DNA from: Methylorubrum extorquens
GTDB lineage: Bacteria > Pseudomonadota > Alphaproteobacteria > Rhizobiales > Beijerinckiaceae
DNA: 32,000 nucleotides
Reading direction: 5' to 3'
Assembly (NCBI GenBank): GCA_900234795.1
Contig: LT962688.1
Coordinates: forward strand, 3,750,001 to 3,782,000
A program made the translations under genes and the position numbers. Positions 7,062 through 30,131 of this stretch are shown here, one piece after another (positions within the stretch are counted from its first letter, which is position 1; each line of letters starts with the position of its first letter). Below the pieces are notes generated by a model. That model saw nothing but the letters and a program-made list of their open reading frames with translations, was not told the origin of the DNA and did no database searches.

Positions 7062-10000
7062 TCACTCCGCCGCTCGCGGGAGGGGCGGTGGGTGGGCGCC
7101 GGCCGAAGCATCCTCGGGCTTGCGCGCGGGGCTCGCGACCGCCTGCCTACCGAAGCGCGCGTAGAGGGCCGGCAACACGATGAGCGTGAGCAGCGTCGCG
7201 CTAATCAGGCCGCCGATAACCACCGTGGCGAGCGGCCTCTGGACCTCCGCGCCCGTGCCGGTCGCGAGCGCCATCGGGACGAACCCGAGCGACGCGACGA
7301 GGGCAGTCATCACCACCGGACGCAGACGGGTGCTCGCGCCCTCCAGCACCGCCTCGCGCAGCGGTCGGCCCTCCTGCATCAACTGCTTGACGTAGCTCAG
7401 CATCACCAGCCCGTTCAGGACTGCCACCCCCGACAGAGCGATGAAGCCCACGGCCGCGGTGACCGAGAACGGCATGCCGCGCAGCCACAGGGCCGCGATG
7501 CCGCCCGTGAGCGCGAGCGGCACGGCGCTGAACACCAGGAGCGCCTCGCGGGGCGAGCCGAGCGCCGAGTAGAGCAGCAGGAAGATCAGGAAGAAGCAGC
7601 CCGGCACCACCACCATCAGGCGTTGGCGCGCCGCGGCCAGGTTCTCGAACGCGCCGCCCCAGGTCACCCAGGAGCCGGCCGGCAGCTTGACTTCCGTCTC
7701 GACCTTGAGCTGGGCCTCCGCCACCACGGAGGCGATGTCGCGTCCTCGGACGTTGGCGGTGACGACAACCCGACGCTTGCCGTTCTCACGGCTGATCTGG
7801 TTCGGTCCCTCCGCGAACACGAAGGACGCGACCTGCTTCAGGGGCACCGAGGCGAAGCGCCCGTTTGCCGTCGGGGGCAGTGAGACCGGTAGGTTCTTCA
7901 GCGCCTCGATGTCGTCTCGCACGGTCTCGGGCAGGCGGACCACGATGTGGAAGCGCCGGTCACCCTCGAACACGACCCCGGCCTCGCGACCGCCGATGGC
8001 AGCCCCGATGACGTCCTGAACCGCGAAGTGGCTCAGCCCCAACCGGGCGATCTCGCCCTTGTCGACCTTGATCTCCAGGGATGGCAGGCCGGTGACCTGC
8101 TCGACCTTGACGTCCTGAGCTCCCTCGACGCTGCGCAGGATGCCGGCGATCCGGTTCGCGGCCGGCAGCATCGCCTCGAAGCTCTCGCCGAACACCTTGA
8201 CGGCAAGGTCGCCGCGGGTGCCGGCCAGGAGCTCGTTGAAGCGCATTTGGATGGGCTGGGTGAACTCGTAGTTGTTGCCCGGAACCTTGTTCACTGCGGC
8301 CTGAATCTGTTCGATGAGCTCATCTTTCGACAGGTGCGGGTCGGGCCACTCGGCCTGTGGCTTGAGCATGATGAAGGTGTCGGAGACGTTCACCGGCATC
8401 GGGTCGGAGGCGATCTCCGCGGTGCCGGTCTTGGCGAACACAAAGGCCACCTGCGGGAAGGCGGAGACCGCCTTCTCGACGGCGAGCTGCATGTCCTGCG
8501 ACTGGGTCAGCGAGGTCGAGGGGATGCGCATCGCGTGCATGGCGATGTTCTTCTCGTCGAGCTGAGGCATGAACTCCTGCCCCAGCCGCCCGAACAGGAT
8601 GCCACTCGCCAGGAACAGCAGGACTGCCGCGCCGATGACCGGTCCCGGCCGGCGCACCGCGCCGGCCAGCAGCGGGCGGTAGGCCCGCTTGAGGCCGCGG
8701 ATCAGGACGTTCTCCTTCTCCTGCACCTTGCCGGTGATGACTATGGCGATGAGAGCAGGCACGAAGGTGAGGGATAAGACGAAGGCGCAGGCCAGCGCGA
8801 TGATCACGGTCAGCGCCATCGGCTCGAACATCTTGCCCTCGACGCCCGTGAAGGTGAGGAGCGGCACGTAGACGAGGATGATGATGGCTTGCCCGTAGAC
8901 GGAGGGCTTGATCATCTCCTCGGCCGAGGCCTGAACGGTGGCGAGGCGCTCCTCCAGGGTTAGGGGACGCCCCGCCTCCGTCTGCCGCTCGGCCAGGTGG
9001 CGCAGCGCGTTCTCGGTGATGATGACCGCCCCATCGACGATGAGGCCGAAGTCCAGCGCCCCGAGGCTCATCAGGTTGGCCGAGATCTTCCCCTGGACCA
9101 TGCCGGTCATGGTCATCAGCATCGCCACCGGGATCACCAGGGCCGTGATGATGGCGGCCCGGATGTTGCCGAGCAGTAGGAAGAGCACGGCTATGACCAG
9201 CAGGGCGCCCTCGGCGAGGTTCTTGGAGACCGTCTTCACGGTAGCGTCGACCAGCGCAGTCCGGTTGAGGACCGTCCGCACCTCGACGTTCGGCGGCAGC
9301 GACTTGGACACCTCCTTCAGGCGCGCGTCGACCGCCGCGGACACGGTGCGGCTGTTTCCGCCAATGAGCATCAGGGCAGTGCCGACGACGGCTTCCTCGC
9401 CGTCCTCGCTCGCCGAGCCCGTGCGCAGCTCGCGCCCGATCCGGACCTCGGCCACGTCGGAGATCCGCACCGGCACGCCGCCGCGAGTGGCGACGACGAT
9501 GCGTCCGATCTCGTCCATTCCCTCGATCCGGCCGGCCGAGCGCACGACGACGCCCTCGCCGCTGCGCTCGAGGTAGCCGGCGCCCCGGTTCTGGTTGTTC
9601 TGCTCGACGGCCTCGGCGACGTCCTTGAATGAGAGCCCGAGGGCGATGAGCTTCGCCGGATCAGGCTGCACGTGGTACTGCTTCTCGTAGCCGCCGATGA
9701 CGTCGACACCGGCCACGCCCGGCACCGTCTTGAGTTGCGGACCGACGATCCAGTCTTGCACGGTCCGCAGGTAGGCCGCCTGCTCGAACCCGGGCCTCAG
9801 CCGCTGGCCTTCCGGCGTCAGGTAGGTGCCGTCGGACTGGAAGCCGGGCTGGCCGTCGCGCACGGTACCGGGCGCCGGCTTCGTGAAGTGGACGGTCCAC
9901 ATGTAGATCTCGCCAAGGCCCGTCGAGATCGGGCCCATCCGGACCTCGGCGCCCGGGGGCAGGTCGTCCTTCACTTGGCTTAGGCGCTCGCTCACCTGCT

Positions 10001-10322
10001 GGCGGGCGAAGTAGACGTTCGTCGCCTCGCTGAAGACGGCGGTGACCTGGGAGAAGCCGTTGCGCGAGAGGGAGCGGGTGTATTCCAGGCCCGGGATGCC
10101 GGCCAGCGCCGTCTCCATCGGGTAGGTGACCTGCTTCTCGACATCGAAGGGCGAGAGCTGCGGCACCACCGCGTTCACCTGGACCTGGTTGTTGGTGATG
10201 TCCGGGACCGCGTCGATGGGCAGCTTGGTCAGCGAGAAGACGCCCAACGCCGCCGCGAGCAGCGACAGCAGCAGCACCAGCCAACGCTGCCGGACAGAGA
10301 AGGCGAGGATTGCGTGGATCAT
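7062..10322 (-). CDS. czcA: Heavy-metal efflux RND permease, CzcA type (divalent cation class)
   Basis: 1086 aa. The N-terminus LPIDAVPDITNNQVQVN, ISTGLGEIYMW, the TM4 signature LDFGLIVDGAVIITEN and C-terminal GTGAEVQRPLATVVIGGL all follow the C. metallidurans CzcA sequence as I recall it. Confidence 0.95.
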   Translation of the reverse strand: MIHAILAFSVRQRWLVLLLSLLAAALGVFSLTKLPIDAVPDITNNQVQVNAVVPQLSPFDVEKQVTYPMETALAGIPGLEYTRSLSRNGFSQVTAVFSEATNVYFARQQVSERLSQVKDDLPPGAEVRMGPISTGLGEIYMWTVHFTKPAPGTVRDGQPGFQSDGTYLTPEGQRLRPGFEQAAYLRTVQDWIVGPQLKTVPGVAGVDVIGGYEKQYHVQPDPAKLIALGLSFKDVAEAVEQNNQNRGAGYLERSGEGVVVRSAGRIEGMDEIGRIVVATRGGVPVRISDVAEVRIGRELRTGSASEDGEEAVVGTALMLIGGNSRTVSAAVDARLKEVSKSLPPNVEVRTVLNRTALVDATVKTVSKNLAEGALLVIAVLFLLLGNIRAAIITALVIPVAMLMTMTGMVQGKISANLMSLGALDFGLIVDGAVIITENALRHLAERQTEAGRPLTLEERLATVQASAEEMIKPSVYGQAIIILVYVPLLTFTGVEGKMFEPMALTVIIALACAFVLSLTFVPALIAIVITGKVQEKENVLIRGLKRAYRPLLAGAVRRPGPVIGAAVLLFLASGILFGRLGQEFMPQLDEKNIAMHAMRIPSTSLTQSQDMQLAVEKAVSAFPQVAFVFAKTGTAEIASDPMPVNVSDTFIMLKPQAEWPDPHLSKDELIEQIQAAVNKVPGNNYEFTQPIQMRFNELLAGTRGDLAVKVFGESFEAMLPAANRIAGILRSVEGAQDVKVEQVTGLPSLEIKVDKGEIARLGLSHFAVQDVIGAAIGGREAGVVFEGDRRFHIVVRLPETVRDDIEALKNLPVSLPPTANGRFASVPLKQVASFVFAEGPNQISRENGKRRVVVTANVRGRDIASVVAEAQLKVETEVKLPAGSWVTWGGAFENLAAARQRLMVVVPGCFFLIFLLLYSALGSPREALLVFSAVPLALTGGIAALWLRGMPFSVTAAVGFIALSGVAVLNGLVMLSYVKQLMQEGRPLREAVLEGASTRLRPVVMTALVASLGFVPMALATGTGAEVQRPLATVVIGGLISATLLTLIVLPALYARFGRQAVASPARKPEDASAGAHPPPLPRAAE

Positions 10323-10333
10323 GGCGGCGCTCC

Positions 10334-11677
10334 TCAGTGCTCGTGCTCTGCTTCGGCCTTGCCGAGCTCGGCCTTGAGGACAAACGCGTTCGTGACAGCG
10401 ACCTCTTCCCCTGCGTCCAGCCCGAAGACGACCTCGACGGCCTCGGCGTCACCCTTGCCGGTCACCACCTCGCGCTTCTCGAAGCCGTCCTTGGTGCGCA
10501 CGAAGACGACCTGCTCGCCCTCGACGTTTTGCAGGGCGGAGCGGGGCAGGCGCAGGGACACCGATTCCTGCTCGACCGCGACCTGCACGGTGGCGTAGGA
10601 GCCTGGCCGCCAGGCCATGCTCTCGTTCTTCACGGACGCGATGACCTTGGCGGAGCGCGTCTGGGCGTCCAGCATCGGGCTGACGAAGACGATCTTGCCC
10701 GTCGTCGTGGCCTTGTCGTCGCCCGTGCCGAGCGTGACCGCCTGGCCCTCCTTGATCGCGCTGAGATCGCCGGTCGGGACCGCGAGCTCGACCCAGACCC
10801 AGGACAGGTCCGCGATGGTGTAGATCTCCTTCTCCTGGCCCTCGTCGTTGACGGGCGCGCCGACATCGACGCGCCGCTCGATGACCCGGCCGGAGATGGG
10901 TGCGCGGAGCTCATAGCGCTGGAGCCCGAGCATCGGCGCCCGGTCGAGCCCCGCCATGTGCTCGTCCTCGACCGAGACGAACTTCTTCGTTGGGTTCGGG
11001 GCCTCGGCGAGCTTGGCGACCTCCGCGTCAGGCACGCCCAGCGCCGAGAGCTTCTGGCGCGCGAGGTCGACCTTCAGGCGCGCCTCGATCAGAGCGGTAC
11101 GGGCCTTGAGGAAGACCTGCTCGGCCGAGATGCCCTTGTCCCGGAGCGTATGGTCGCGCTCGAACAGGGTCTCCTGCAACTCGCGTCCGACATGGGCCGC
11201 GATGTAATCGTTCTTGGCGTCGGCCACCTCGCGGCTGTCGAGCACGGCCACGACCTCACCCTTCTCGACGGTGTCGCCCAGGCGCTTTCTCAGTTCGGCG
11301 ACGGTACCAATGACCTTGGCGGCGACCCGAGCCACCCGCTCGGCGTCCGGCGCAACCGTGCCGGGCACGGTGAGCTTGCGGGAGAGAATACCCTTGTCGA
11401 CCGGCGCGACCGTTATCTTGGCGGCGGTGATCTGCTCGGGCGTAAGCGTGACGACGCCCTCGGGCCCCTCCTTCTCCCCTTCGCCGTGGGCGTGCCCTCC
11501 GTGGGAGTGGCCGCCGTGCGAGTGGCCGGCATGGCCGCCTTCGGTCCTGGGCTTGGCGGGAGCGTCGAGGCCGGTCGCGGCCCAGAGCGCCTTGGTGCCG
11601 TCGGACACCTCCGGAACGAGGGCGCCCACGGCGACCCCGGCAGCGAGCACGGCCGGAAGGGCAAGGAAACGGAACAT
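10334..11677 (-). CDS. czcB: RND periplasmic adaptor (membrane fusion protein), CzcB-like, with His-rich N-terminal stretch
   Basis: Start taken at ATG 11677 (SD GGAGGA, signal/anchor MFRFLALPAVLAAGVAVGAL). Contains GGHAGHSHGGHSHGGHAHGEGE, then coiled-coil and beta-barrel adaptor-like sequence. Stop is 11 nt before czcA. Confidence 0.9.
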   Translation of the reverse strand: MFRFLALPAVLAAGVAVGALVPEVSDGTKALWAATGLDAPAKPRTEGGHAGHSHGGHSHGGHAHGEGEKEGPEGVVTLTPEQITAAKITVAPVDKGILSRKLTVPGTVAPDAERVARVAAKVIGTVAELRKRLGDTVEKGEVVAVLDSREVADAKNDYIAAHVGRELQETLFERDHTLRDKGISAEQVFLKARTALIEARLKVDLARQKLSALGVPDAEVAKLAEAPNPTKKFVSVEDEHMAGLDRAPMLGLQRYELRAPISGRVIERRVDVGAPVNDEGQEKEIYTIADLSWVWVELAVPTGDLSAIKEGQAVTLGTGDDKATTTGKIVFVSPMLDAQTRSAKVIASVKNESMAWRPGSYATVQVAVEQESVSLRLPRSALQNVEGEQVVFVRTKDGFEKREVVTGKGDAEAVEVVFGLDAGEEVAVTNAFVLKAELGKAEAEHEH

Positions 11678-11797
11678 GGAAAAATCCTCCGGACCGCATC
11701 TGGGCGGCCGCGGGTCACGTCGGATCTCGATTAGGACGTGACCGCGCATGCAAACGGGGGCAGGCGACCGCCTCGGTGGCGGACGTGCGGGGACCGT

Positions 11798-12184
11798 TCA
11801 GGCGCGAGGGGGTTTGCGCGGTGGCGCGGTGGCGCGGGCGGTCACGGCCGCCTCGCCAACGATGAAGGGCACCTCGTCGGTGACCCGGACCGGTACGAGC
11901 ATGCCGCCGGCGTCCGCGATGACCACCTGATGGCAGGCGCAGCTCGCGCAATGGTGGGCCGGCCCTCGGTCGGGCGACACATCGTCGGTCGCCGGCTGGC
12001 CCATTTCCAAGGAGAGGTGGGACACGGAATGGTGCGGCCCGGGCTCGTGCGCATGGGCGTCGGCCATCGGGACTGCCAGGACCAGGATGAGGAGCAGCGC
12101 GACCAGGCGTGCGGCCAGCCGCCACCATGAGGCAGCCGCGGTACGGGCCTCCTTCGGTGATGGACTGGTCGTCGCGTGGGTCAC
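11798..12184 (-). CDS. Small membrane-anchored His/Cys protein with C-terminal PPRKPPRA tail (unassigned family)
   Basis: GTG start with SD GGAGAA 9 nt upstream. TM segment WWRLAARLVALLLILVLAVPMA, then DAHAHEPGPHHSVSH, HHCASCACH and the tail APPRKPPRA. Lies directly upstream of czcB. Two analogous ORFs precede the other RND modules. Confidence 0.6.
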   Translation of the reverse strand: MTHATTSPSPKEARTAAASWWRLAARLVALLLILVLAVPMADAHAHEPGPHHSVSHLSLEMGQPATDDVSPDRGPAHHCASCACHQVVIADAGGMLVPVRVTDEVPFIVGEAAVTARATAPPRKPPRA

Positions 12185-12278
12185 GTGCGCGGGTTCTCCT
12201 TACCGGCTGGCGTCGAGGCTGTAGCGACCCTTGCCGGCCTCGCCCGCAGGCGTCTTCAGGGTGACAGTCGCGCGAATC

Positions 12279-12611
12279 TTAACCCTCGACGGGAAAATCG
12301 ATCTTACCCGAGAGGCGGTTATCGCCGGAAGGCGTCAAGTCGACCGTTCTCTGCTCGTTGCCCTTGGCGAGCACGACCGCGCTGGCCGAGAACTTGGCGG
12401 CGTCGACCTTACGCTCCTGCTCGTCGACGAGATGCAGGGTCATCTCGGAGCCCTTCACCACGAGCTCGGCCTCGTAGGCACCGATCTGCTTGAGCTGGCC
12501 ACCGTTGGGTGGGGCATGGGAATGGTCGTCCCCCGGCGCTGCCGCCACCAAGGCAGGGAATGCCAGGGCCACGAGCCCCGCCGCCAGGACCATGTTGCGT
12601 AGCGTCGCCAT
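12279..12611 (-). CDS. Small periplasmic beta-sandwich-like metal-operon protein, probably 3'-frameshifted
   Basis: Signal peptide MATLRNMVLAAGLVALAFPALVAAA|P, then HSHAPPNGGQLKQIGAYEAELVVKGSEMTLHLVDEQ...GDNRLSGK, which aligns with ORF 30154..30519. It stops at 12279, but another frame continues to a TAA at 12200 (see findings). Confidence 0.6.
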   Translation of the reverse strand: MATLRNMVLAAGLVALAFPALVAAAPGDDHSHAPPNGGQLKQIGAYEAELVVKGSEMTLHLVDEQERKVDAAKFSASAVVLAKGNEQRTVDLTPSGDNRLSGKIDFPVEG

Positions 12612-12900: not shown

Positions 12901-12926
12901 GGATCTGTTTTGCCGGCTCTTGCGTT
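12901..12926 (+). promoter_or_regulatory. Putative ECF-like promoter GGATC-N17-CGTT
   Basis: GGATC 12901-12905, 17-nt spacer, CGTT 12923-12926, 32 nt before the ATG at 12958. Same architecture as 5492-5517. Confidence 0.4.
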
Positions 12927-12957
12927 TGAGGCCCATTCTCGAACACGGGAGACACAA

Positions 12958-13200
12958 ATGAAGCTCACCATTGCAGCCTTGGCCGCCTCCGCCGCCCTGG
13001 CCCTCGCCCCGGTCGGCGCGCTCGCCCAGCACGTTGACGTCGGGCCCGGCGGCGTGTCCGTGCACGGCGACCGCCACCATCACGACGTCGAGCACACGCA
13101 TTCGACGGTCGAGGAGCATCACCACGACCGACCGGTCGTGCACGACCACCACGACGACCATCACGAGCACACCACGGTCATCGAGAAGCACGGCCACTGA
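12958..13200 (+). CDS. Small exported His-rich protein (80 aa), paralogue of 5554..5796
   Basis: Signal peptide MKLTIAALAASAALALAPVGALA|Q. Mature part HVDVGPGGVSVHGDRHHHDVEHTHSTVEEHHHDRPVVHDHHDDHHEHTTVIEKHGH. Same length as its paralogue and shares the blocks ALAQH(I/V)DVGPGGVSVHG, DHHDDHH and EKH-H. Confidence 0.8.
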   Translation: MKLTIAALAASAALALAPVGALAQHVDVGPGGVSVHGDRHHHDVEHTHSTVEEHHHDRPVVHDHHDDHHEHTTVIEKHGH

Positions 13201-13718: not shown

Positions 13719-13723
13719 CCCGC

Positions 13724-13754
13724 TTGCTCCTCTAGTTGCTGGAGGAAGTAGGAT
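13724..13754 (+). promoter_or_regulatory. MerR-type promoter/operator (19-bp spacer) for the P-type ATPase
   Basis: TTGCTC (13724-29), 19-nt spacer containing the dyad CCTCTAG-TTG-CTGGAGG (13729-13745), and -10 TAGGAT (13749-54). Confidence 0.65.
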
Positions 13755-13783
13755 CTCTCCGAGAGATGCGGAAGGCACCAGCC

Positions 13784-17587: not shown

Positions 17588-17983
17588 GTGACGTTCTGGC
17601 TCGCCCTTCGGCGGCTGCTCCCGCTCCTTGCGGTCCTCAGCCTCGCCCTCGCGCCGGTGACCGCTTCCGCGGCCGCCGCGGGAATGGGTGCCTCGATGTC
17701 CGTGACCGCCGACCATCACGCGACGGCGGGCACGAGCGCCGACGACATGGCCGGGATGGCCATGGACGACATGCCCTGCTGCCCCGACGAGAAGCCGGCC
17801 ATGCCGGACTGCTCCAAGGCTTGCCCGCTGATGGCGCTCTGCCTGGCCAAGGTCGCTCCTGGCCTGCCGACGGGCGCCGGCCTGCCGGTGCTCGTCTCGA
17901 ACGTGGCCGAGGTTGGCTGGGGCGGCGACGCCTCGTTCGCGAGCCTGGCGCAGGCACCCCCTTCCGAGCCTCCACGGGCCTGA
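17588..17983 (+). CDS. Small exported/anchored Met/His/Cys protein with C-terminal PPSEPPRA tail
   Basis: GTG start. Signal/anchor MTFWLALRRLLPLLAVLSLALAPVTASA, then ADHHATAGTSADDMAGMAMDDMPCCPDEKPAMPDCSKACPLMALC and the tail APPSEPPRA. First gene after the CueR-type box. Confidence 0.6.
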   Translation: MTFWLALRRLLPLLAVLSLALAPVTASAAAAGMGASMSVTADHHATAGTSADDMAGMAMDDMPCCPDEKPAMPDCSKACPLMALCLAKVAPGLPTGAGLPVLVSNVAEVGWGGDASFASLAQAPPSEPPRA

Positions 17984-18064
17984 ACCCGATGCCGCCGGCA
18001 TGAGCGCCGGCACGATGCCGCGCGCCCGCGTGCGGCCCGCAATCGCGTTCAGGAGACATCACCC

Positions 18065-18469
18065 GTGACCAAGAACCCCCTCGTGCGCGCCATGGCGGCC
18101 GCGCTGCTCGGCGCCGCGCTGTCGGCACCGGCTTTTCCGGCGCTCGCCGACATCAAGGACTACCGCTTCGAGCTCGTGCAGCAGGAGGCGAAGGTCGGCG
18201 AGGCCGTCATCGCCGTCCGGCTCGTCGACAAGCGCAGCGGCAAGCCGGTGCCCGACGCCGTGGTCTTCGCCAAGCGCCTCGACATGGCCCCCGACGCCAT
18301 GGAGGAGATGGCCACCAAGGTCGAGCAGGTCCCCTCGACCGAGCCGGGCGTCTACCGCTTCAAGGCCAAGCTCTCGATGCAGGGCCGTTGGCGCCTGTCG
18401 CTGGCCGCGAAGGTTCAGGGCGAGACCGGCACGGTCGAGGACAAGCTGGTCCTTCAGGCCGCGAAATGA
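18065..18469 (+). CDS. Periplasmic FixH/YtkA-like small protein
   Basis: SD AGGAGA. Signal peptide ending PALA|D. DIKDYRFELVQQEAKVGEAVIAVRLVDKRSGKPVPDAVVF...GVYRFKAKLSMQGRWRLSLAAKVQGE matches the pattern of FixH-family proteins found next to Cu/Ag adaptors. The stop overlaps the next start (ATGA). Confidence 0.65.
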   Translation: MTKNPLVRAMAAALLGAALSAPAFPALADIKDYRFELVQQEAKVGEAVIAVRLVDKRSGKPVPDAVVFAKRLDMAPDAMEEMATKVEQVPSTEPGVYRFKAKLSMQGRWRLSLAAKVQGETGTVEDKLVLQAAK

Positions 18470-19989
18470 CCCGCCCGGCATGGCTCGCCGGGCCCCTCGC
18501 CGCGCTCGCGGCGGGGGGGCTCGGCTATTGGGCGGGGCACGGGGGCATTCCCGTGCCGGCACTCGTCAAACGGGCCGGGTCCGAGCTCGTGCCCGCGCTT
18601 GTCGAGCGGGCGCGGGCCGGCTTCGCGCACTGGATGCCGGACGCCCGTCCGGCCCGGCAGGGGCCGGCACCCCAGGTTCCGGCCCCTGCCGGGCCGGTGG
18701 TCTACTACCGAGATCCGGACGGGAAGCCGGTCTACTCGGCCTCGCCGATGCTAACCGGGGACGGGCGCGAGTTCCGGGCAGTCCACGCGAGCGAGGACGT
18801 TCGCATCGACGCCGACGACCCCGGCGCCATGTCCGCTGACATGGCCGAGCACGGCACGGCGCACGACAAAGCGGCCGGCGGCGCCCGGCGGGTCCTCTAC
18901 TACCGCAACCCGATGGGGCTGCCGGACACCTCGCCGGTGCCGAAGAAGGACTCGATGGGGATGGACTACGTCCCCGTTTACGCAGGTGAGGACGAGGGCG
19001 GCGTCGTGACGGTCTCGCCCGCCAAGGTCCAGCGCACCGGCGTGCGCACCGCGGCGGTTGAGCGGCGGATCGTCTCCCAGCCGGTGCGCGTGCCCGGCAC
19101 GGTTGCGCTCGACGAGCGCCGCGTCACCGTCGTGGCGACGCGCTCGGACGCCTACGTCGACTACGTCGAAAGCGTCACCACCGGCGACCGCGTCCGCAAG
19201 GGCCAGCCCCTGGTCCACGTCTACTCGCCCGAGATCAACGCGGCCGCCGCCCAGCTCATCGCCAACCCCGGCTTCGACGGGGCCCGGCGGCGTCTGCAGA
19301 ACCTCAACGTCTCGGAACCCGTCATCGACGAGATGGAGCGCACCCGGAAAGTGCCGATGGCCATCACGTGGTCCTCGCCCCGAGACGGCCTCGTCCTGCA
19401 GCGGACCGCCGTCGAGGGCATGAAGGCCGCGGCCGGCGACACTCTGTTCCGGATCGGCGACATCTCCCTGATGTGGGTGCTGGCCGACGTGCCCGAGCGC
19501 GACCTTGCGGGGGTCCGCGTGGGCCAGCCCGTCAGCGTGCGGCTACGCTCTGCGCCAGGGCGGACCTTCTCCGGCAAGGTGGCAATCGTCTACCCACAGG
19601 TGAACCCGGAGACCCGGGCCACCCGGGTACGCATCGAGCTCGCGAACCCGGACGGCACGCTGCTCCCTGACATGTACGCCGATGTCGAGATCGCGACCGG
19701 GGCGCCGAGCCCGGTGGTGGCGGTCCCGGATGACGCCGTCATCGACACGGGCGAGCGCCAGGTGGTCCTGCTCGACCGTGGCGAGGGCCGCTTCGAGCCG
19801 AAGGAGGTCAAGGTCGGCGTGCGCGGCGGCGGCTACGTCGAGGTGCGCGAGGGCGTCACGGCCGGCGACCGGGTGGTCACGGCGGCGAACTTCCTGATCG
19901 ACGCCGAGAGCAACTTGAAGGCGGCGCTCCAGTCCATGACCGTCCCGAAAGACGACCGGCAGGCTTCGAGCTCGGGAGGCACGCCGTGA
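18466..19989 (+). CDS. cusB: Cu(I)/Ag(I) RND periplasmic adaptor, CusB-like
   Basis: Start at ATG 18466 overlaps the upstream stop. TM anchor, then YYRDPDGKPVYS and LYYRNPMGLPDTSPVPKKDSMGMDYVPVY (CusB-like N-terminal metal-site region), then adaptor barrel/lipoyl-like sequence. The stop overlaps the cusA GTG (GTGA). Confidence 0.9.
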   Translation: MTRPAWLAGPLAALAAGGLGYWAGHGGIPVPALVKRAGSELVPALVERARAGFAHWMPDARPARQGPAPQVPAPAGPVVYYRDPDGKPVYSASPMLTGDGREFRAVHASEDVRIDADDPGAMSADMAEHGTAHDKAAGGARRVLYYRNPMGLPDTSPVPKKDSMGMDYVPVYAGEDEGGVVTVSPAKVQRTGVRTAAVERRIVSQPVRVPGTVALDERRVTVVATRSDAYVDYVESVTTGDRVRKGQPLVHVYSPEINAAAAQLIANPGFDGARRRLQNLNVSEPVIDEMERTRKVPMAITWSSPRDGLVLQRTAVEGMKAAAGDTLFRIGDISLMWVLADVPERDLAGVRVGQPVSVRLRSAPGRTFSGKVAIVYPQVNPETRATRVRIELANPDGTLLPDMYADVEIATGAPSPVVAVPDDAVIDTGERQVVLLDRGEGRFEPKEVKVGVRGGGYVEVREGVTAGDRVVTAANFLIDAESNLKAALQSMTVPKDDRQASSSGGTP

Positions 19990-22900
19990 TCGCGCGCCTC
20001 ATCGGCTGGTCGGCCCGCAACCTCGTCCTGGTGCTCGTCGGGACCGTGTTCGCGGTCGGGGCAGGCGTCCTGGCGCTCAGGACCCTGCCGCTCGACGCCA
20101 TCCCCGACCTCTCGGACGTGCAGGCCATCGTCTACACCGAGTACCCGGGCCAAGCGCCCCAGGTCGTGGAGGATCAAGTCACCTACCCCTTGAGCACCGC
20201 CATGTTGACGGTGCCGAAGGCGAAGGTCGTGCGCGGCTTCTCGTTCTTCGGCGTGTCCTTCGTCTACGTGATCTTCGAGGACGGCACCGACCCGTACTGG
20301 GGCCGCTCGCGCGTGCTCGAATACCTTAACGCCGCGGCGAGCCGCCTGCCGGCCGGCGCCACGCCGACCCTAGGGCCCGACGCGACTGGGGTGGGCTGGG
20401 TCTACCAGTACGTCGTGGTCGCCAAGGAGCGCACGCTCGCCGAGCTTCGCTCGCTGCAGGACTGGGTCATCCGCTTCGGGGCCTCGCGCGCCGAGGGCGT
20501 GGCAGAGGTCGCCGGCGTCGGCGGCTTCGTGAAGCAGTACAACGTCGTCGTCGACCCGAACCGCCTGCGTGCCCAGGGCATCTCGCTCAACAAGCTCCGG
20601 GACGCCATCCGGGCGAGCAACGCCGACGTCGGCGGCCGGACGGTCGAGCTCTCCGAGTTCGAGTTTATGGTGCGCGGGCGCGGCTATCTGCGGAACGTCG
20701 CCGACATCGAAAACATCGTGCTGAAGACCTCGGCCGGCACGCCACTCCGGATCCGGGACGTCGCCCGGGTCGAGCTCGGGCCGGACGAGCGGCGCGGCAT
20801 CACCGAGATGAACGGCGAGGGCGAGGTCGCCGGCGGCATCGTCCTTCAGCGGTTCGGGGCGAACGCCCTCAACGTGATCGAAGGGGTGAAGGCGAAGCTC
20901 GCGGAGGTCGCCAAGAGCCTGCCGGCGGGCACAGAGATCCTGCCGGTCTACGACCGCTCGCAGCTCATCGACGCGGCTATCGAGACGCTCAAGGGCACGC
21001 TCGTCGAGGAGAGCATCGTCGTCTCGCTCGTCTGCGTCGTCTTCCTGCTCCACGTGCGGAGCGCCCTGGTGGCCATCCTGATGCTGCCGGTCGGCATCCT
21101 GATGGCCTTGGCGAGCATGAAGGCGCTCGGAATCGGCGCCAACATCATGTCTCTCGGCGGCATCGCCATCGCGGTCGGCGCCATGGTCGACGCCGCCATC
21201 GTGATGATCGAGAACGCCCACAAGCACCTGGAGCGGGCGCCGCCGGGCAAGCCGCGGGTCGAGATCCTGGTCGAGGCGGCGTCCGAGGTCGGCCCCTCCC
21301 TGTTCTTCTCGCTCCTCGTCATCACGGTCTCGTTCCTGCCGATCTTCACCCTAGAGAGCCAGGAGGGGCGGCTGTTCGGGCCGCTCGCCTACACCAAGAC
21401 CTTCGCCATGGCGGCCGCCGCCCTCCTGTCGGTCACCCTGGTGCCGGCGCTCATGGTGCTGTTCGTGCGCGGGCGCATCTTCCCCGAGCACCGCAACCCG
21501 CTGAACCGTCTCCTCATCTGGCTCTATCGGCCGCTCATCGCCGGGGTGCTGCGGGCCCGGGTCCTGACCATCCTGCTGGCGGTCGGCGTGCTGGCGGCGA
21601 CCGCTTGGCCGGCCCGGCAGCTCGGCTCCGAGTTCATGCCGGAGCTGAACGAGGGGACGCTGCTCTACATGCCGACGACCCTGCCCGGTATCTCGGTGAC
21701 GAAGGCCGGCGAGCTGCTCGCCACGCAGGACCGCATCATCAAGTCCTTCCCTGAGGTCGCCTCGGTCTACGGCAAGGCGGGACGCGCCAACACCGCGACC
21801 GACCCGGCGCCGATGGAGATGTTCGAGACGGTGATCACGCTGAAGCCGAGGGCCGAGTGGCGCCCGGGCGTGACGCTGGCGAGCCTCAAGGCCGAGATGG
21901 ACGCGGCCCTGCAGTTCCCGGGCGTGTCGAATGCCTGGACCCAGCCGATCCGCGCCCGCATCGACATGCTTTCCACCGGCATCCGCACGCCCGTGGGCGT
22001 GAAGGTGCTGGGCACCGACCTGAAGGAGATGGAAGGCGTCGCCCGCCAGGTCGAGGCGGTGCTCCGGGCCGTGCCCGGCACGTCTAGCGCCTACGCCGAG
22101 CGGGTCATCGGCGGCTACTTCCTCGACATCGCGCCGGACCGCGAGGCGCTCGGGCGCTACGGCCTGACGGTCGGGGACGTGCAGGACGTCGTCGCGACTG
22201 CGCTCGGCGGGCAGGCGGTGACGAACACCGTCGAAGGCCGGGAGCGCTACACCGTCAACGTGCGCTACCCGCGCGCCTACCGGTCGGACCCGCAAGCCAT
22301 CGCCGACGAGGTGCAGGTGCTGATGCCGGCGGGCGGCACGGTGCCGCTCCGCGAGGTGGCCAAGGTCGAGCTCACCCGCGGCCCGACCTCGATCCGGACC
22401 GAGAACGGGCAGCTCGCGGTCTACGTCTTCGTCGACATCTCGGGGCGCGACCTCGGCGGTTACGTGGCCGAGGCCCGCAAGGTCGTCACCGACGAAATCA
22501 AGCTGCCCCAGGGCACCACGCTGCAATGGAGCGGGCAGTACGAGTACCTGGAGCGGGCGGAGGCGCGGCTGAGGGTCGTGGTGCCGTTGACGCTGCTGGT
22601 CGTGTTCCTGCTGCTCTACCTCAACTTCCGGCGGCTCACCGAGACGCTCATCGTCATGCTGTCGCTGCCCTTCGCGCTCGTCGGCGGGGTCTGGATGCTC
22701 TGGTGGCTTGGGTTCAACCTATCAGTCGCGGTGGCGGTCGGCTTCATCGCGCTCGCCGGCGTCGCCGCGGAGACCGGCGTGATCATGCTGGTTTACCTCG
22801 ACCATGCCCTCCACGAGGTCCAGGCCGGGTGCGCCCGTGCAGGCCGGCCGCTCACCCGCGCGGACTTGCGGCAGGCCATCATGGTCGGCGCGGTCGAGCG

Positions 22901-23147
22901 CGTCCGCCCGAAGATGATGACCGTGACGGCCATCATGGCCGGGCTCGTCCCGATCCTCTGGAGCACGGGTGCCGGGTCCGAGGTCATGCAGCGGATCGCG
23001 GTTCCCATGATCGGCGGCATGGTCTCCTCGACGGTGTTGACGCTGATCGTGATCCCGGCGGTCTACGCCCTGGTGAAGGGCCGCGGGCTGCCGCCCACGA
23101 CGGCGGTGGCGGAGAGGGGCACGCAGACGCCGATGGCTGCGGCATGA
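19986..23147 (+). CDS. cusA: Cu(I)/Ag(I) efflux RND permease, CusA type
   Basis: [36 protein letters not shown] and [19 protein letters not shown] follow E. coli CusA as I recall it. TM4 is [21 protein letters not shown]. The methionine-triad contexts are conserved: [32 protein letters not shown]. Confidence 0.95.
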   Translation: [1053 protein letters not shown]

Positions 23148-24671: not shown

Positions 24672-25139
24672 ATGAGCCTCGACCGGCAAATCGTGCGCCT
24701 GATGGCGGCGATGATCTTCGCGATCATCGCCTACGTCGCGCCGTCCGCCGTCCAGGCCCACGAGGGGCACGCGCACCACGGCCACCACGTGGCCGTGACG
24801 CAGCACAAGGCAGTCCCGGCGACGGTCAAGGCCGCGGGGACGGTGCCCCCCAAGCCGGCTATCCGGGCAGAGGCGCCGCCCCGGTTCAAGGTCGCGCTCC
24901 CGGTTGCCGCCGTCGAGCCCGCCCGCATCGAGGCGGACCAGGACGGCAGCTGCTGCCCCGGGCCCTGCAAGGCCCGTTGCTGCGGGCCGATGGCCTGCTG
25001 CGCGACCGGCATCTTGTCCGGCCCCTCCGCCCTGTCCCCGTCCCTGTTCCGGACCGTCACGCTGATCCCGCGCGACGTCTCCGGACGCGCCGGCACCGGC
25101 CCCGAGGCCCTGCCCAAGCCCCCACGAACCCTCGCGTGA
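24672..25139 (+). CDS. Small membrane-anchored His/Cys-rich protein with C-terminal PKPPRTLA tail
   Basis: TM segment LMAAMIFAIIAYVAPSAVQA, then HEGHAHHGHHVAVTQH, the Cys cluster GSCCPGPCKARCCGPMACCATG, and the tail LPKPPRTLA. Lies upstream of the third adaptor/RND pair. Start is uncertain (no clear SD). Confidence 0.55.
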   Translation: MSLDRQIVRLMAAMIFAIIAYVAPSAVQAHEGHAHHGHHVAVTQHKAVPATVKAAGTVPPKPAIRAEAPPRFKVALPVAAVEPARIEADQDGSCCPGPCKARCCGPMACCATGILSGPSALSPSLFRTVTLIPRDVSGRAGTGPEALPKPPRTLA

Positions 25140-25228
25140 GATGAGGCGCGCCTGAGGCGCGCGACACCCGGATTGCGTCCGCGAACGGCGGCGCGCGTCC
25201 GGCATCCCCGACGCGAGGATTCCTGTTC

Positions 25229-26968
25229 ATGTCGACCCGATTTGCCGCCGCCCTGGGCGCGGTGGCGCTGCTTGCCGCCGTCCTGGCGGGGCCCGCGCAT
25301 GCCCATGGCGGGCACGACCACGGCGCGGCTCCGCCCCCCGTCTCGAAGACCATCGCCCCCCGCGGCGAGGCCCTGTCAGACGCCTTCGAGCTCGTCGCCA
25401 TCCCGCGCGACGGCACCCTGACGCTCTACCTCGACCGCTTCCGGACGAACGAGCCGGTGCCGGGCGCCACCATCGAGGTCGAGACGCCCGAGGGCCCCAG
25501 GACCGCGACGGCCACGCAGGAGGGGGGCTACGTCTTGCCGGCGCCGTGGCTGTCGAAGCCAGGCCGCCACGACCTCGTGGCGACCGTCACGGCCGGAGAC
25601 GCCGTCGACGTGCTCACCGTTGCCGTCACCGTGCCCGACCCGAAGGTCGCCGCGGCCGCCGCACCTGCCAAGCCCGCTCCGGCGCAGGCTGCCCTGGCGC
25701 GCGTCTCCGAGGTCGCTCATGGCGTCAGGGAGCGGCTGACGGCCAAGGACCCGAACCTGGTGGCCGCGGTCGCCGCCGCCTTCCTGCTCGGCGTGCTCGT
25801 GGCCGGGCTCGCGCGTGGCCGCCGTGGCGCTCCGGCCGTGGCGCTGCTGGCGATCGGCATCACCATCGTCCTCGGCACCGCCGCCTTCGCGCATGGCGAT
25901 GAGGATCATGGCGCGCCCGTGCAGGGGGCCGCCCTGATCGAGCCAAGCCCCGTCGCGCCGTCTTCGTCGGACTTGGCGCAGCGACTGCCCGATGGCTCCG
26001 TGTTCGTGCCCAAGCCGACACAGCGGCTACTGGTCCTGCGCACGACCATGACCGAGCAGGGCAGCTTCCACCGCTCGGTCGAGCTGCCGGGCCGCATCAT
26101 CCCGGACCCGAACGCCAGCGGCGTCGTGCAGTCCTCCGTCGGCGGCCGCCTGTCGCCACCGCCCTCCGGACTGTTCCCGCGCCTCGGAACGAAGGTGCGC
26201 AAGGGTGATGTGCTCGCCACGGTGACGCCGCCGGTCCAGGCCGTCGACGTCTCCGACATGCGCCAGCGCCAGGGCGAGCTCGACCAGCAGATCGCCATCG
26301 TCGAGCGCCGGGTCGACCGCTACCGGAAGCTCGCCACCACCGGCGCAGTCGCCACGACCCAGCTCGACGACGCGGTCGCGGAGCTCAACGGCCTGCACGA
26401 CCGCCGCGCCGCCCTCGACAAAGCCCGGCAGCAGCCCGAGACCCTGGTAGCGCCCGTGGACGGCGTCGTCGCACAGGCGACCGCGGTGGCCGGCCAGATG
26501 GCGGCGCCCGGCGCCATGGTCTTCCAGATCGTCGACCCGAACCGCCTCTGGGTCGAGGCGCTGAGCTTCGACGCCCTGACGGCGGCGCAGGACGCCACGG
26601 CGCGCTTCGCCGACGGGCGGACCCTTAAGCTGGCCTACCAGGGCACCGGTCTCGCCGACCGCAACCAAGCCATCCCCGTCCAGTTCGCGATCCAGGGCGA
26701 CGCCTCAGGCCTGCGGGTCGGCCAGTTCGTCACCGTCCTGGCCGGCACCGACGCGGAGCAGTCCGGCCTGGCGCTGCCGCGCTCGGCCGTCGTGCGCACC
26801 GGCAACGGGCAGGACGTCGTCTACGAGCACACCACCGCCGAGCGCTTCGAGGCGCGGCCCGTCCGGGTCGAGCCGCTCGACGGCGGCCGCGTGCTGGTCG
26901 CCGAGGGGATCGGTCCAGGCAAGCGGGTCGTGACCCAGGGCGCCGAGCTCCTCGACCAGGTCCGCTGA
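25229..26968 (+). CDS. RND periplasmic adaptor with an N-terminal extra periplasmic domain and TM hairpin
   Basis: Signal peptide ...LAGPAHA|HGGHDHG, then a ~150-aa domain ([33 protein letters not shown]...). Two TM segments follow ([19 protein letters not shown]; [18 protein letters not shown]), then HGDEDHG and a typical adaptor body ([15 protein letters not shown]..., coiled coil, VVTQGAELL). Confidence 0.85.
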
Positions 26969-26981
26969 GAAGGCCGCCCCG

Positions 26982-29900
26982 ATGTTCACCTTTCTCGTCA
27001 GTCAGTCGGTCCGCAACCGCCTGCTCGTCCTGGCCATGGCAACAGTGCTGGTGCTCTACGGCGCCTTCACCGCGACCAAGCTGCCGGTCGACGTCTTCCC
27101 CGACCTCAACAAGCCGACCGTCACCATCATGACGGAGGCGGAGGGCTACGCGCCCCAGGAGGTCGAGCAACTCGTCACCTACCCCATCGAGACCCGCATG
27201 AACGGGCTGCCGGGGGTGACCCGCGTGCGCTCGGTCTCGGGTGTGGGCCTGTCCATCACCTACGTCGAGTTCGACTGGGGCACGGACATCTACCGGAATC
27301 GCCAGCAGGTCGCGGAGCGGCTGTCGCTGGTGCAGGACCAGCTTCCTCGCGGCGTGACCCCGGTGATGGGGCCGATCTCCTCCATCATGGGCCAGATCCT
27401 GCTGGTGGCGGTCACCAGCGAGACCGCCAGCCCGATGCAGGTGCGCGAGGTCGCCGACTTCACCATCCGCCCGCGGCTGCTGACCATCCCGGGCGTCGCG
27501 CAGGTCATCCCCATCGGGGGCGAGGTGCGCCAGTTCCGAGTCAGCCCGAACCCGGCCGCCATGCGCTCGCTTGGGGTGACGAACGCCCAGCTTGAGACGG
27601 CGCTCACCCAGTTCGGCACGAACGCTGGCGGCGGCTTCACCGACCAGCATTCGCGCGAGTACCTGATCCGGAACATCGGCCGGACCATGAGCCTCGACGA
27701 CCTGCGCAACCTCGTGGTCGCGACGGTCGCCGACACGCCGGTCCACCTGCGCCAGGTCGCCGAGGTGTCCTTCGCGGCCCGGGTTAAGCGCGGCGACGCC
27801 GGCTACATGGCCAAGCCCTCGGTCATCGTCTCGGTCGAGAAGCAGCCGGACGTCGACACGGTGCGGCTCACCCGCAGCATCCAGACGGCGCTGAAGGAGC
27901 TCAACCCGAACCTGCCCGGCGGCATCAAGGCCGACCAGGTCCTGTTCCGGCAGGCCGACTTCATCGAGACCTCGATCCGCAACGTCGAGCGGGTCCTCGT
28001 CGAGGCCGTGCTGGTGGTGGCGGTGGTGCTGTTCGCCTTCCTCTTGAACGTGCGCACCACGGCCATCTCGTTGCTGGCCATCCCGGTCTCGGTGCTGACC
28101 ACCGCGGTGGTGTTCCACCTGTTCGGGCTGTCCATCAACACCATGACGCTCGGCGGCCTCGCCATCGCCATCGGCGAGCTCGTCGACGACGCGGTGGTGG
28201 ACGTCGAGAACATCTACCGCCGCCTGGGCGAGAACCGGCGGGCGGGCAACCCGCGCTCGGTCTTCGAGGTGGTGGTCTCCGCCTCCAACGAGGTCCGCTC
28301 CGGCATCGTCTACGCGACGCTGATCATCATCCTGGTGTTCGTGCCGCTCTTCGCGCTGTCTGGCATCGAGGGCCGGCTCTTCGCCCCGCTCGGGCAGGCC
28401 TACATCATCTCCATCCTGGCGAGCCTGCTCACCTCCATCACCCTGACCCCGGTGCTGGCCTCGCTGCTGCTGCCGGGTCTCAAGAACCTGGAGGAGCACG
28501 ACAGCCGCTTCCTCAAGCTGCTCAAGCGGGGCAACGCCGCCCTGCTGCGGGTCGCCTTCCGGCACAAGGGCCTTCTGGTCGGCACCGTCGCGGTCGCGGT
28601 AGTCGCCGCGGGCGTCGCCGCCTGGAACCTGCCGCGGGCCTTCCTGCCGCCCTTCAACGAGGGGTCCTTCACGGTCAACATGACCTTCAACCCCGGCATC
28701 TCACTGGCAGAGAGCAACCGGGTCGGGCTGATCGCTGAAAAACTGCTGCTGGACATCCCGGGCGTGAAGGCGGTCGGGCGCCGCACCGGCCGGGCCGAGC
28801 TCGATGAGCACGCCGAGGGCGTCCACTCCTCCGAGATCGAAGTGGCGCTCGACGAGGACTCGAAGCGGCCGAAGGAGGCACTCGTCACCGACATCCGCGG
28901 GCGCCTCGCGGCCCTGCCGGTGGCGGTCAACGTCGGCCAGCCGATCTCGCACCGCCTCGACCACATGCTCTCGGGCGTGCGGGCCGAGATCGCGCTCAAG
29001 GTGTTCGGCGAGGACCTCGACGCCCTGCGCCGGGTCGCCAACTCGCTTCGCGAGCGGATGGCCTCGATTCCGGGCCTCGTCGACCTGCAGGTCGAGCGGC
29101 AGGTGCGCATCCCGCAGTTGGAGGTGCGCGTCGACTACACCCGGGCGGCTCTGTACGGGGTTCAGCCGGCCGCGGTGGTCGAGCAGATCAGCCGCCTCTC
29201 GAATGGGCGCGTGGTCTCGACGGTGGTCGACGGCGTGCGCCGCTTCGACGTGGTCCTGCGCCTGTCCGAGAACCGCCGAACGACGACGGGGCTCGGGGAC
29301 CTGCTGCTGGAGACGCCCTCCGGCTGGGTCCCGGCGCGGCAGGTCGCCGACATCCGCGAGACGGACGGCCCGAACCAGATCCTGCGCGAGAACGCCCGGC
29401 GCCGCATCGTCGTCCAGGCCAACACCAACGGCGAGAGCGACATGGCCACGGTCGTGGCGGCCATACGCGAGGCCGTGGCGAAAGAGCCGATGCCGCCGGG
29501 CTTCTTCACCAGCCTGGAGGGCACCTTCCAGGCGCAGGAGGAGGCGAGCCGGACCATCGCGGCGCTCTCGGCGCTGTCCTTGGCGCTGGTGTTCGCCATC
29601 CTCTACAGCCGCTACCGCTCGGCCGCGCTCGCCCTCATCATCATGGGCAACGTCCCGCTGGCGCTGATCGGCTCGGTGGCGGCCCTGTGGCTGGTCGGCC
29701 AGCCCCTCTCGGTGGCGTCGATGATCGGCTTCATCACGCTGACCGGCATCGCCGCGCGCAACGGCATCCTGAAGATCAGCCACTACCTGAACCTGTCGCT
29801 CCACGAGGGGGTCTTGTTCGGGCCCGACCTCGTGGTCCGCGGCAGCCTGGAGCGGCTGACACCGGTGCTGATGACGGCCCTCTCGGCCGGCGTGGCGCTG

Positions 29901-30131
29901 GTGCCGCTGCTCTACGACGCGGCGAGCCCGGGCAAGGAGATCCTGCACCCCGTCGCGGTGACGATCTTCGGCGGGCTCGTCAGCGCGACGCTGCTCGACA
30001 CCTTCCTGACCCCCGTCCTGTTCCTGCGCTTCGGTCGCAAGCCGCTTGAGCGGCTGCGCGCCCTCCACGCCGAGGCGCCGGCCCATCCATCCCCGGACGG
30101 CGCCCGCGCTCGCCCGGCCGAGGCCTACTGA
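26982..30131 (+). CDS. Heavy-metal efflux RND permease, CusA/CzcA superfamily, divergent third class
   Basis: 1049 aa. [39 protein letters not shown]4 is [21 protein letters not shown] (AIG..DDA, unlike DFG..DGA or AVG..DAA). C-terminal [26 protein letters not shown]. Confidence 0.93.

Follow-up and report, generated by a model that had tools for sequence, protein, structure and literature searches.

In Rhodobacter capsulatus, the 118-residue protein CutF is exported by the Sec/signal recognition particle route, and copper bound to its CxxxC motif prolongs a translational pause at a proline-rich motif at the C-terminus (Ozturk et al. 2021, PMC8456105; 2023, PMC9973294; 2025, bioRxiv 10.1101/2025.02.05.636593). 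According to the same papers, this pause melts a stem-loop that covers the next gene's Shine-Dalgarno (SD) sequence; CutF is inactive in trans, and it is degraded after export and then undetectable. Its cysteines (C69xxxC73) and its C-terminal end (P109EPEGPPPRL118) are placed such that 41 residues lie between the last cysteine and PPR, which is followed by a single residue and the stop codon. A second system is CruR (Bp2923) of Bordetella pertussis, a DUF2946 protein in which a CXXC motif and a C-terminal RAPP motif, 45 residues apart, control Rho-dependent termination; here copper relieves the arrest, so that Rho terminates transcription of an uptake operon, and CruR can do without its export signal (Roy et al. 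2022, PMC9426467). A third protein, CzcI, has its gene upstream of czcCBA and has been described as a periplasmic quencher of CzcCBA activity for zinc and cobalt (PMC10127602). Here we analysed a stretch of 32,000 nucleotides of Methylorubrum extorquens (contig LT962688.1, positions 3,750,001 to 3,782,000 of the forward strand; hereafter the window), which has a G+C content of about 70% and whose nearest relatives are Methylobacterium and Methylorubrum genomes. Three small open reading frames (ORFs), named A, B and C, each head an operon for a heavy-metal efflux pump of the resistance-nodulation-division type (HME-RND). We consider it probable that all three are cis-acting leaders of the CutF type, i.e. 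nascent exported peptides that would report periplasmic metal to their own ribosome.

All three ORFs were found where the sequence-only reading had placed them, and the translations match the peptides that it quoted. Leader A (11798..12184, minus strand, 128 aa) starts with the GTG at 12184, with a strong SD sequence (AAGGAGAA) 8 nt upstream. It consists of a signal peptide, a His-rich stretch (DAHAHEPGPHHSVSH), the putative metal-binding motif HHCASCACH (11930..11956, minus strand; family consensus H-C-A-H-C-x-C-H-Q) and the tail APPRKPPRA, followed by TGA (11798..11827, minus strand). Leader B (17588..17983, plus strand, 131 aa) combines a signal peptide with the Met/His-rich segment ADHH..DDMAGMAMDDM, a Cys cluster (PCCPDEKPAMPDCSKACPLMALC; 17774..17842, plus strand), in which the pattern MPCCP...PDC.K.CPL...C is invariant across the Hyphomicrobiales relatives, and the tail APPSEPPRA before TGA (17954..17983, plus strand). 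Leader C (24672..25139, plus strand, 155 aa) has a signal peptide, the stretch HEGHAHHGHH, an unconserved linker of about 50 residues, a cluster of seven cysteines (SCCPGPCKARCCGPMACC; 24948..25001, plus strand) and the tail LPKPPRTLA before TGA (25110..25139, plus strand). The distance from the last cysteine to PPR amounts to 40 (A), 42 (B) and 39 (C) residues, and the reading frames close with the codons CCC CCT CGC GCC TGA (A), CCT CCA CGG GCC TGA (B) and CCC CCA CGA ACC CTC GCG TGA (C), where PPR stands three residues before the stop. A constant PPxxPPR tail, as had been suggested, does not apply to all three proteins, since C has a single PP; the constant core is PPR. The N-terminal transmembrane or signal segment noted in that reading looks, by inspection, like a cleavable Sec-type signal peptide and not like a membrane anchor: hydrophobic regions with Kyte-Doolittle values of 2.3-3.0 over 15 residues are followed by putative cleavage sites ADA/H (A), ASA/A (B) and VQA/H (C).

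At such a G+C content many spurious ORFs arise, and the ORFs or their common features could be a functionless by-product of base composition, all the more as about 1-2% of frames carry a PP[RK] ending by chance. The window contains 206 stop-to-stop frames with a length of 80 aa or more; five of them end in PP[RK] plus 0-3 residues, and three of these five are A, B and C. Because only about one frame in a hundred ends in this way, the occurrence of three such ORFs at the heads of three pump operons is no coincidence. The G+C content at the third codon position is 0.84 (A), 0.89 (B) and 0.94 (C) in the claimed frames, with the lowest value at position 2, and the adjacent RND genes behave alike. 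In 81 related loci, 57 of the filtered small ORFs with such a tail lie in coding-like frames and 16 in non-coding-like ones. Moreover, hundreds of homologues retain the motifs and the position, and in the B family the tail is constant across the Hyphomicrobiales while the flanking sequence diverges. A by-product of high G+C is thus highly improbable, chance or spurious ORFs are ruled out by third-position composition and conservation, and A, B and C are confirmed as real, conserved coding genes.

Homologue searches returned 8 (A), 283 (B) and 127 (C) sequences, nearly all from Methylobacterium or Methylorubrum. In every family the export signal, the Cys cluster and the PPR tail are the most conserved parts, and the number of residues between PPR and the stop codon is fixed at one (A, B) or three (C). 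The cysteine-to-PPR distance is equally stable: 39 residues in 6/8 members of family A, 42 in 115/118 of family B and 39 in 103/113 of family C. Among distinct B-type junctions, 123 of 127 have 38-43 residues, including relatives at 32-45% identity whose spacer sequences are unrelated. When a family A profile was searched against a library of 1.8 billion proteins, 56 further clusters were recovered, which have in common only the export signal, the motif H-C-A-H-C-x-C-H-Q and the ending (K/E/R)PPR(A/V/T)-stop. As in the B-type relatives, the spacer is fixed in length and unconserved in sequence. Members of family B also occur in metagenomes and on plasmids, among them those of Rhizobium, Agrobacterium, Ensifer and Xanthobacter; a tblastn search of plasmids with A gave no match. 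One B-type subgroup on metagenome contigs ends in PPPKPPRSLVRSA, with six residues after PPR instead of one. Homology between the three families could not be demonstrated: profile comparison by hhalign aligned A with B only in the signal peptide and A with C not at all, even with a 57-member family A profile, while B against C gave E = 6e-5 at 65% probability. Because these profile comparisons fail, we treat A, B and C as three classes with a common architecture and do not claim that they are paralogues.

Constraint on the tail concerns the codons as well as the peptide. When compared with the long genes of the same loci as background, the first tail proline is encoded by CCU in 89 of the 125 B-type junctions (71%; background 5%), and by CCG, which accounts for 59% of the background, in only two (1.6%). 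The tail arginine is CGA in 105 of the 125 (84%, against 7%) and in 16/16 class C junctions. The proline codons vary synonymously, with the peptide remaining fixed. This preference for rare codons is consistent with programmed slow decoding. In addition, the string CCUCC, which occurs in the tail codons, including those of leader B, resembles an anti-SD sequence. The RAPP motif of CruR is written in frequent codons, which may mark a real difference between the systems.

Each of the three pumps comprises an HME-RND permease of the CusA/CzcA family together with an adaptor. In module A (7062..11749, minus strand) a CzcB-type adaptor ORF (10334-11749, minus strand) precedes the permease (7062-10322, minus strand). 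The adaptor most likely starts at ATG 11677, which has the SD sequence GGAGGA, so that the spacer to leader A measures 120 nt (11678..11797, minus strand) instead of the 48 nt that separate the leader from the longest ORF; in homologues, the gene callers' starts lie 117-136 nt past the leader stop. This spacer contains three predicted hairpins without significant covariation. Module B (18065..23147, plus strand) comprises a YtkA/FixH-like periplasmic gene (18065-18469), a CusB-like adaptor (18466-19989), whose start at ATG 18466 overlaps the YtkA-like gene in an ATGA, and a CusA-like permease (19986-23147), all on the plus strand. Module C (25229..30131, plus strand) consists of an adaptor (25229-26968) and a permease (26982-30131). 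The gaps from the leader stop to the next gene are thus 120 nt (A), 81 nt (B) and 89 nt (C). The statement that each ORF lies just upstream of an adaptor/RND pair holds for A and C, but not for B, where the YtkA/FixH-like gene intervenes.

The proposal of a dedicated component ahead of HME-RND operons is borne out in the relatives, where the gene order is kept for all three classes. The order B leader, YtkA/FixH, adaptor and CusA-type permease recurs in Methylobacterium, and likewise in Ensifer, Agrobacterium vitis and Xanthobacter, where it is located on plasmids for copper resistance. C leaders are followed by the adaptor after 85-89 nt, with the RND permease next, and A leaders, including relatives found at E-values from 1e-11 to 1e-4, by a CzcB-type adaptor and an RND permease after 117-138 nt. 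The leader homologues of Ensifer and Agrobacterium are named 'hypothetical protein' by the Prokaryotic Genome Annotation Pipeline. On the Xanthobacter autotrophicus plasmid pXAUT01 (locus L090, 5737-6294) the leader (…MPCCPDGTPAVPDCQKSCPLMATC…ARPPRT-stop) is unannotated, and the antisense 'hypothetical protein' Xaut_4830 was deposited instead. A fourth leader class was noted in three further loci (L062, as a reverse-complement ORF at 13548-14001, L063 and L075). These proteins of 150 aa are His/Cys-rich (…CPGHRHRSKRTACPSPCCTLGC…), end in RIERPPRLGA-stop and are separated by about 60 nt from a downstream gene that encodes an outer-membrane efflux (OEP) domain.

At the junctions of modules B and C a helix that covaries across species joins the last codons of the leader to the SD region of the downstream gene. 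In module B, a conserved structured RNA (17979..18056, plus strand) contains two helices and an inner GC hairpin. CCUGAA (17979-17984), which spans the stop codon, pairs with UUCAGG (18048-18053), which includes the 5' half of the SD sequence AGGAGA (18051-18056), and CGAU (17987-17990) pairs with AUCG (18042-18045). The junction folds with -53 kcal/mol (z = -4.9). The CCUGAA/UUCAGG pairing is present in 49/49 distinct Methylobacterium sequences, and the helices are paired in 99% of cells, compared with 20-42% when they are slid. Distant B relatives keep the helix with other sequences, e.g. CCUGAAUUCAUCG with CGAUGAAUUCAGG in Ensifer, and in the Xanthobacter-type loci a UAG stop lies within CCUAGG, which pairs with CCUGGG. 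The corresponding RNA of module C (25129..25219, plus strand; z = -2.7) has a helix between CCCUCGCGU (25129-25137), which covers the last codons together with the stop's first base, and ACGCGAGG (25211-25218), which contains the SD sequence GAGGA (25215-25219). Since the Methylobacterium spacers are nearly invariant, there is almost no covariation within the genus, and the signal emerges only with distant relatives and in a partner-swap test. In this test, the 48 B helix types pair more stably with their own partners than with foreign ones (medians -18.8 versus -15.0 kcal/mol), as do those of class C (n = 10; -21.2 versus -18.9 kcal/mol), and 0 of 5000 permutations was as low in either case. 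The duplex z-score is weak (median -1.1), and an Rfam search of the window gave no match. In the metagenomic B-type subgroup with six residues after PPR (L152-L172), the best predicted pairing of the SD region (GAUCGAGGG) uses the PPR codons (CCUCCCCGAUC) and not the stop-codon region.

How a pause at the tail would be converted into pump expression could be explained by kinetic or co-transcriptional control of the SD sequence, by reinitiation owing to the proximity of stop and start, by Rho- or RNase-dependent control, or in another way. In one alternative the leaders would sense metal in the same manner and act on the transcript, as in CruR: the ribosome paused on the tail would block Rho or RNA processing in the spacer, and metal would set read-through or mRNA stability. 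The CruR precedent, where arrest at RAPP governs Rho-dependent termination, favours this idea, and so do the failure of equilibrium models to reveal any unmasking of the SD sequence, the weak contact of family A members with DUF2946, and the spacers themselves, which are long (81-136 nt), highly conserved and structured. On the other hand, copper relieves the CruR arrest and switches expression off, which suits an uptake operon but has the wrong sign for efflux, so that an inverted coupling would be needed. Furthermore, the spacers are GC-rich and strongly folded, unlike the C-rich, unstructured sites at which Rho loads (rut sites), none of the three holds a site resembling an intrinsic terminator, and neither terminators nor sigma-70 promoters near the leaders exceeded the expectation from shuffled sequence. 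Finally, the SD region of the gene that follows is where the covarying helices end, and this speaks for an effect on translation initiation. We therefore regard a transcriptional output as unlikely.

Although the sequence-only reading could not assign these ORFs to a characterised family, their architecture corresponds to that of CutF-like, DUF2946, CopL and CruR proteins, which were described between 2021 and 2025. In the published survey, CutF-like proteins were recognised by small size, a signal peptide, a Cys/His motif, PP within the last 15 residues and a short gap to the downstream gene (Ozturk et al. 2023, PMC9973294). With 128 and 131 aa, A and B lie below the limit of 150 aa used in 2023, whereas C (155 aa) exceeds it but is within the limit of 170 aa used in 2021 (PMC8456105). 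All three have a signal peptide by inspection, a Cys/His motif (HHCASCACH, PCCP..C..C..C and CC..C..CC..CC) with the last cysteine 39-42 residues before PPR, a proline-rich ending that is invariant among homologues, and a gap of 81-120 nt to YtkA, adaptor and HME-RND genes. In that survey, the genes that most often adjoin those for CutF-like proteins are OEP, ACR_tran (CusA/CzcA) and HlyD_D23 (CusB/CzcB) genes (Ozturk et al. 2023). CusD, SilD and CzcI were named in that survey as members or relatives, CzcI and CzcI2 lacking the proline motif, and clusters of the CutF-like kind that contain only His adjoin nickel/cobalt genes.

The named families fit less well. Some homologues are labelled 'DUF2946' or 'CopL family' in UniRef, several B and C homologues carrying the latter name. 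In direct comparison with DUF2946, B scored 8.9 bits (E = 3.4), and A and C gave no match even at E = 10; among family A relatives, weak matches were obtained for 2/8 and 14/57 sequences, with a best E-value of 0.0039. The DUF2946 hallmark of CXXC about 45 residues before RAPP is absent: A has C-A-S-C at a comparable spacing, and all three families end in PPR(A). With the NCBIfam CopL model (NF033807), a cut-off as loose as E = 10 produced no match for A, B or C; in the relatives it gave weak matches for 20/37 sequences of family B (best E = 1.8e-5) and for 0/34 of family C. Judged by their sequence features, A, B and C are thus members of the CutF-like class by architecture and not of DUF2946 or CopL. 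It is important to note that this kind of gene, including its adjacency to RND genes, is already known from the published surveys. New here are the rare-codon tail, the covarying helix between stop region and SD region, and the presence on a single island of three leaders with different ligand types, which do not constitute a new category.

When set beside CutF itself, the leaders are similar in being small exported proteins with a Cys motif, a spacer of about 41 residues, and PPR, one residue and the stop at the end (PPPRL in CutF, PPRA in A and B). They also resemble the cutFOG arrangement in that the leader is the first gene of the operon and is separated by a short structured spacer from a metal-detoxification gene, which in CutF follows a logic of metal induction. 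In contrast, the genes downstream are RND efflux operons (YtkA, adaptor, permease) instead of a multicopper oxidase, CxxxC is replaced by CxxCxC (A), CC...C...C...C (B) and a seven-Cys cluster (C), and the tails have PP where CutF has PPP. Significant sequence similarity to CutF was not seen for the window proteins, the masking of the SD sequence was not reproduced in silico, and since pump A is of the divalent-cation type, the ligand of A is perhaps not copper. Likewise, the leaders share with CruR an upstream ORF with an export signal, a CxxC motif (C-A-S-C in A), a conserved spacing of about 45 residues to a proline motif near the stop, and a metal-homeostasis operon, and relatives of A give the weak matches to the DUF2946 hidden Markov model; the tails differ, RAPP followed by three residues standing against PPR(A). 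CopL of Xanthomonas and Stenotrophomonas (copLAB) is also a small Cys/His-rich ORF before copper-resistance genes and is needed in cis for copper induction, but it precedes copA/copB, a multicopper oxidase system, and no RND pump. The combination of an N-terminal export signal and a C-terminal arrest motif is known from SecM, VemP and MifM as well, where an mRNA structure governing the following gene is refolded by the paused ribosome. In these cases, however, translocation and not a ligand is sensed, the arrest motifs are longer and unrelated in sequence, and the arrest is relieved by pulling force, not prolonged by ligand binding.

Taken together, we propose the following scenario. The signal peptide would bring the translating ribosome to SecYEG. 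When translation arrives at the C-terminal Pro-Pro-Arg codons, the cluster of Cys and His some 40 residues upstream would just have emerged on the periplasmic side. Bound metal (copper or silver for B, probably ions of the zinc/cobalt/cadmium type for A) might then alter folding, disulfide formation or the pulling force, and so lengthen the pause on PPR or the nearby stop codon. The paused ribosome would cover the last codons of the leader, i.e. one strand of the conserved helix, the other strand of which lies at the SD region of the next gene, and expression of the YtkA, adaptor and RND genes would rise. The released peptide would probably be short-lived. We infer from the CutF and CruR experiments that the leaders are exported, bind metal, make the ribosome pause and act in cis, and also in which direction they respond. 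For a metal-dependent pause and action in cis, the rare codons of the tail and the covarying pairing of the tail region with the downstream SD region lend indirect support only.

Several results weigh against this scenario. The predicted SD accessibility in the window is no lower than in shuffled sequences (116/150 shuffles for A, 56/150 for B and 21/150 for C were as masked or more), the median probability of an unpaired SD sequence in 125 B-type junctions is 0.50 as compared with 0.47 in shuffles, and a ribosome modelled on the tail shifts SD accessibility by no more than 0.01, both in the window and in the 125 junctions. Of the SD sequence, no more than the 5' half lies within the B helix, and class A shows no RNA covariation in the partner-swap test (1342/5000 permutations as low). 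No SD sequence can be recognised ahead of leader B (GTG start; 17558-17590) or leader C (ATG start; 24642-24674). None of the window proteins reaches the thresholds of Pfam DUF2946 (PF11162; gathering threshold 23.7 bits) or of NCBIfam CopL, and the demonstrable homology among A, B and C is lacking. As for CutF, its tail alone in a SecM-type reporter gave no detectable arrested product (CutF papers), and the RND-linked members of the CutF-like class are known from bioinformatics.

The most obvious competing explanation is a stable periplasmic or membrane-anchored accessory protein, similar to CzcI or CusF, that would bind metal at its His/Cys sites and influence the assembled pump, in that it quenches or gates efflux or delivers metal to the adaptor, with the tail as a polyproline docking motif. 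In essence, this is the view taken in the sequence-only reading. CzcI/CzcI2, CusD and SilD of Cupriavidus metallidurans, compared here by their descriptions, are indeed small exported proteins encoded directly upstream of HME-RND operons (czcCBA, cusCBA, silCBA), and the quencher role of CzcI provides a precedent. The positional analogy to CzcI drawn in the sequence-only reading was apt, as the CutF paper groups CzcI and CzcI2 with the CutF-like proteins; the same paper notes that they have no proline motif, and they are described as quenchers of pump activity, which sets them apart from the leaders. The conserved metal-ligand clusters, the ligand type differing with the pump type, and the negative in-silico tests for SD unmasking would likewise be compatible with an accessory protein, and CutF was itself first taken for a copper chaperone with a proline-rich interaction motif. 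Against this stands the spacer of about 40 residues, whose fixed length and unconserved sequence would be unusual for a folded binding protein. For leader A, AlphaFold2 predicted a helix at residues 10-42 only, the mature part being coil with a predicted local distance difference test score (pLDDT) of 50-60, and a predicted template modelling score (pTM) of 0.31; such a model would be expected of a transient sensor more than of an accessory protein with a fold. Docking would also leave the constraint at the nucleotide or tRNA level unexplained, as the tail always ends its PPR 1, 3 or 6 residues before the stop codon, contains rare codons far more often than the background does and has codons that covary with the downstream SD region. 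In addition, CzcI itself lacks the motif, and CutF is undetectable after export and has no activity in trans. An accessory protein is, on balance, about as unlikely as the transcriptional alternative, and a cis-acting pausing motif explains the tail better than the docking motif implied earlier. Of the roles suggested in the sequence-only reading, sensor or regulator is the best one for the three ORFs.

The suggestion that ligand chemistry tracks pump type is consistent with our comparison of the permeases, a correlation over three cases, and agrees with the published adjacency of His-only CutF-like clusters to nickel/cobalt genes. The module B permease scores 1215 bits with E. coli CusA and 566 bits with ZneA, carries the motif AIAVGAMVDAAIVMIEN in transmembrane helix 4, and follows the Met- and Cys-rich leader B. 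The module A permease is nearer to ZneA/CzcA (647 versus 576 bits) than to CusA, and follows the His-rich leader A with its CxxCxC motif. Leader C is paired with a third, unclassified HME-RND pump. It is conceivable, although we give this broader idea somewhat less than an even chance, that RND-linked leaders of the CutF type are general metal-tuned sensors made of nascent chains, and not sensors for copper only. One island of 20 kb would then hold three orthogonal sensors wired in cis, Met/Cys for the CusA-type copper/silver pump, His/CxxCxC for the CzcA/ZneA-type divalent-cation pump, and His plus seven Cys for the third pump, with pausing set by the peptide together with the rare run CCU-CCC-CGA, through slow decoding and the anti-SD-like CCUCC.

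The surroundings of the three modules hold further genes with possible links to metals. An OEP (CzcC/CusC) outer-membrane factor gene is absent from the window for all three modules (7062-30131); in one distant relative of module A (L174), an OEP gene follows the permease. Directly upstream of leader A lies a FixH/YtkA-like, His-rich periplasmic gene (12185-12611, minus strand) with a +1 frameshift in a G-run, reading …FPVEG* and continuing in the next frame as KIRATVTLKTPAGEAGKGRYSLDASR*. In related genomes the gene is intact (135 aa; e.g. L084, 2578-2985), so that the frameshift is either that of a pseudogene or a homopolymer sequencing error. A 96-aa ORF (12910-13200, plus strand) with a signal peptide, whose mature part is extremely rich in His (…GDRHHHDVEHTHSTVEEHHHDRPVVHDHHDDHHEHTTVIEKHGH), has no Pfam match and may encode a periplasmic metal-binding protein. 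A MerR-family regulator with a C-terminal Cys/His cluster (13296-13829, minus strand) adjoins a P1B-type ATPase with an HMA domain (13736-15916, plus strand), the longest ORFs of the two overlapping by about 90 nt. A CopZ-like HMA-domain gene for a protein of 70 aa (24368-24580, plus strand; motif MGCGGC) is located 91 nt upstream of leader C. At the outer ends, a sigma factor of the extracytoplasmic function (ECF) type (1589-2149, plus strand) is followed by a 227-aa ORF without Pfam match (2160-2843, plus strand), which could be an anti-sigma factor, and a DUF305 gene (30516-30935, plus strand) comes after module C. These last three genes may be part of the same metal-response island.

The expression of heavy-metal RND pumps is usually ascribed to two-component systems or to regulators of the MerR or ECF type. 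If the leaders work like CutF, many alphaproteobacterial RND pumps would instead be controlled by a ribosome that reads periplasmic metal through an exported peptide, and if such leaders are indeed tuned to different metals, post-transcriptional sensing across the membrane would be the primary control of many HME-RND pumps without a two-component system nearby. The analysis also yields a set of concrete, testable sequence rules, namely 39-42 residues from the last cysteine to PPR, the place of PPR with respect to the stop codon, the codon run CCU-CCC-CGA and a helix that links stop region and SD region. This matters for annotation, since leader genes carry the label 'hypothetical' or are passed over for an antisense ORF, as on pXAUT01, and it bears on how islands and plasmids for metal resistance are read in Rhizobium, Agrobacterium, Ensifer and Methylobacterium, as well as on the engineering of compact cis-acting metal biosensors. 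The window itself offers a natural three-way comparison of sensor chemistry with pump type.

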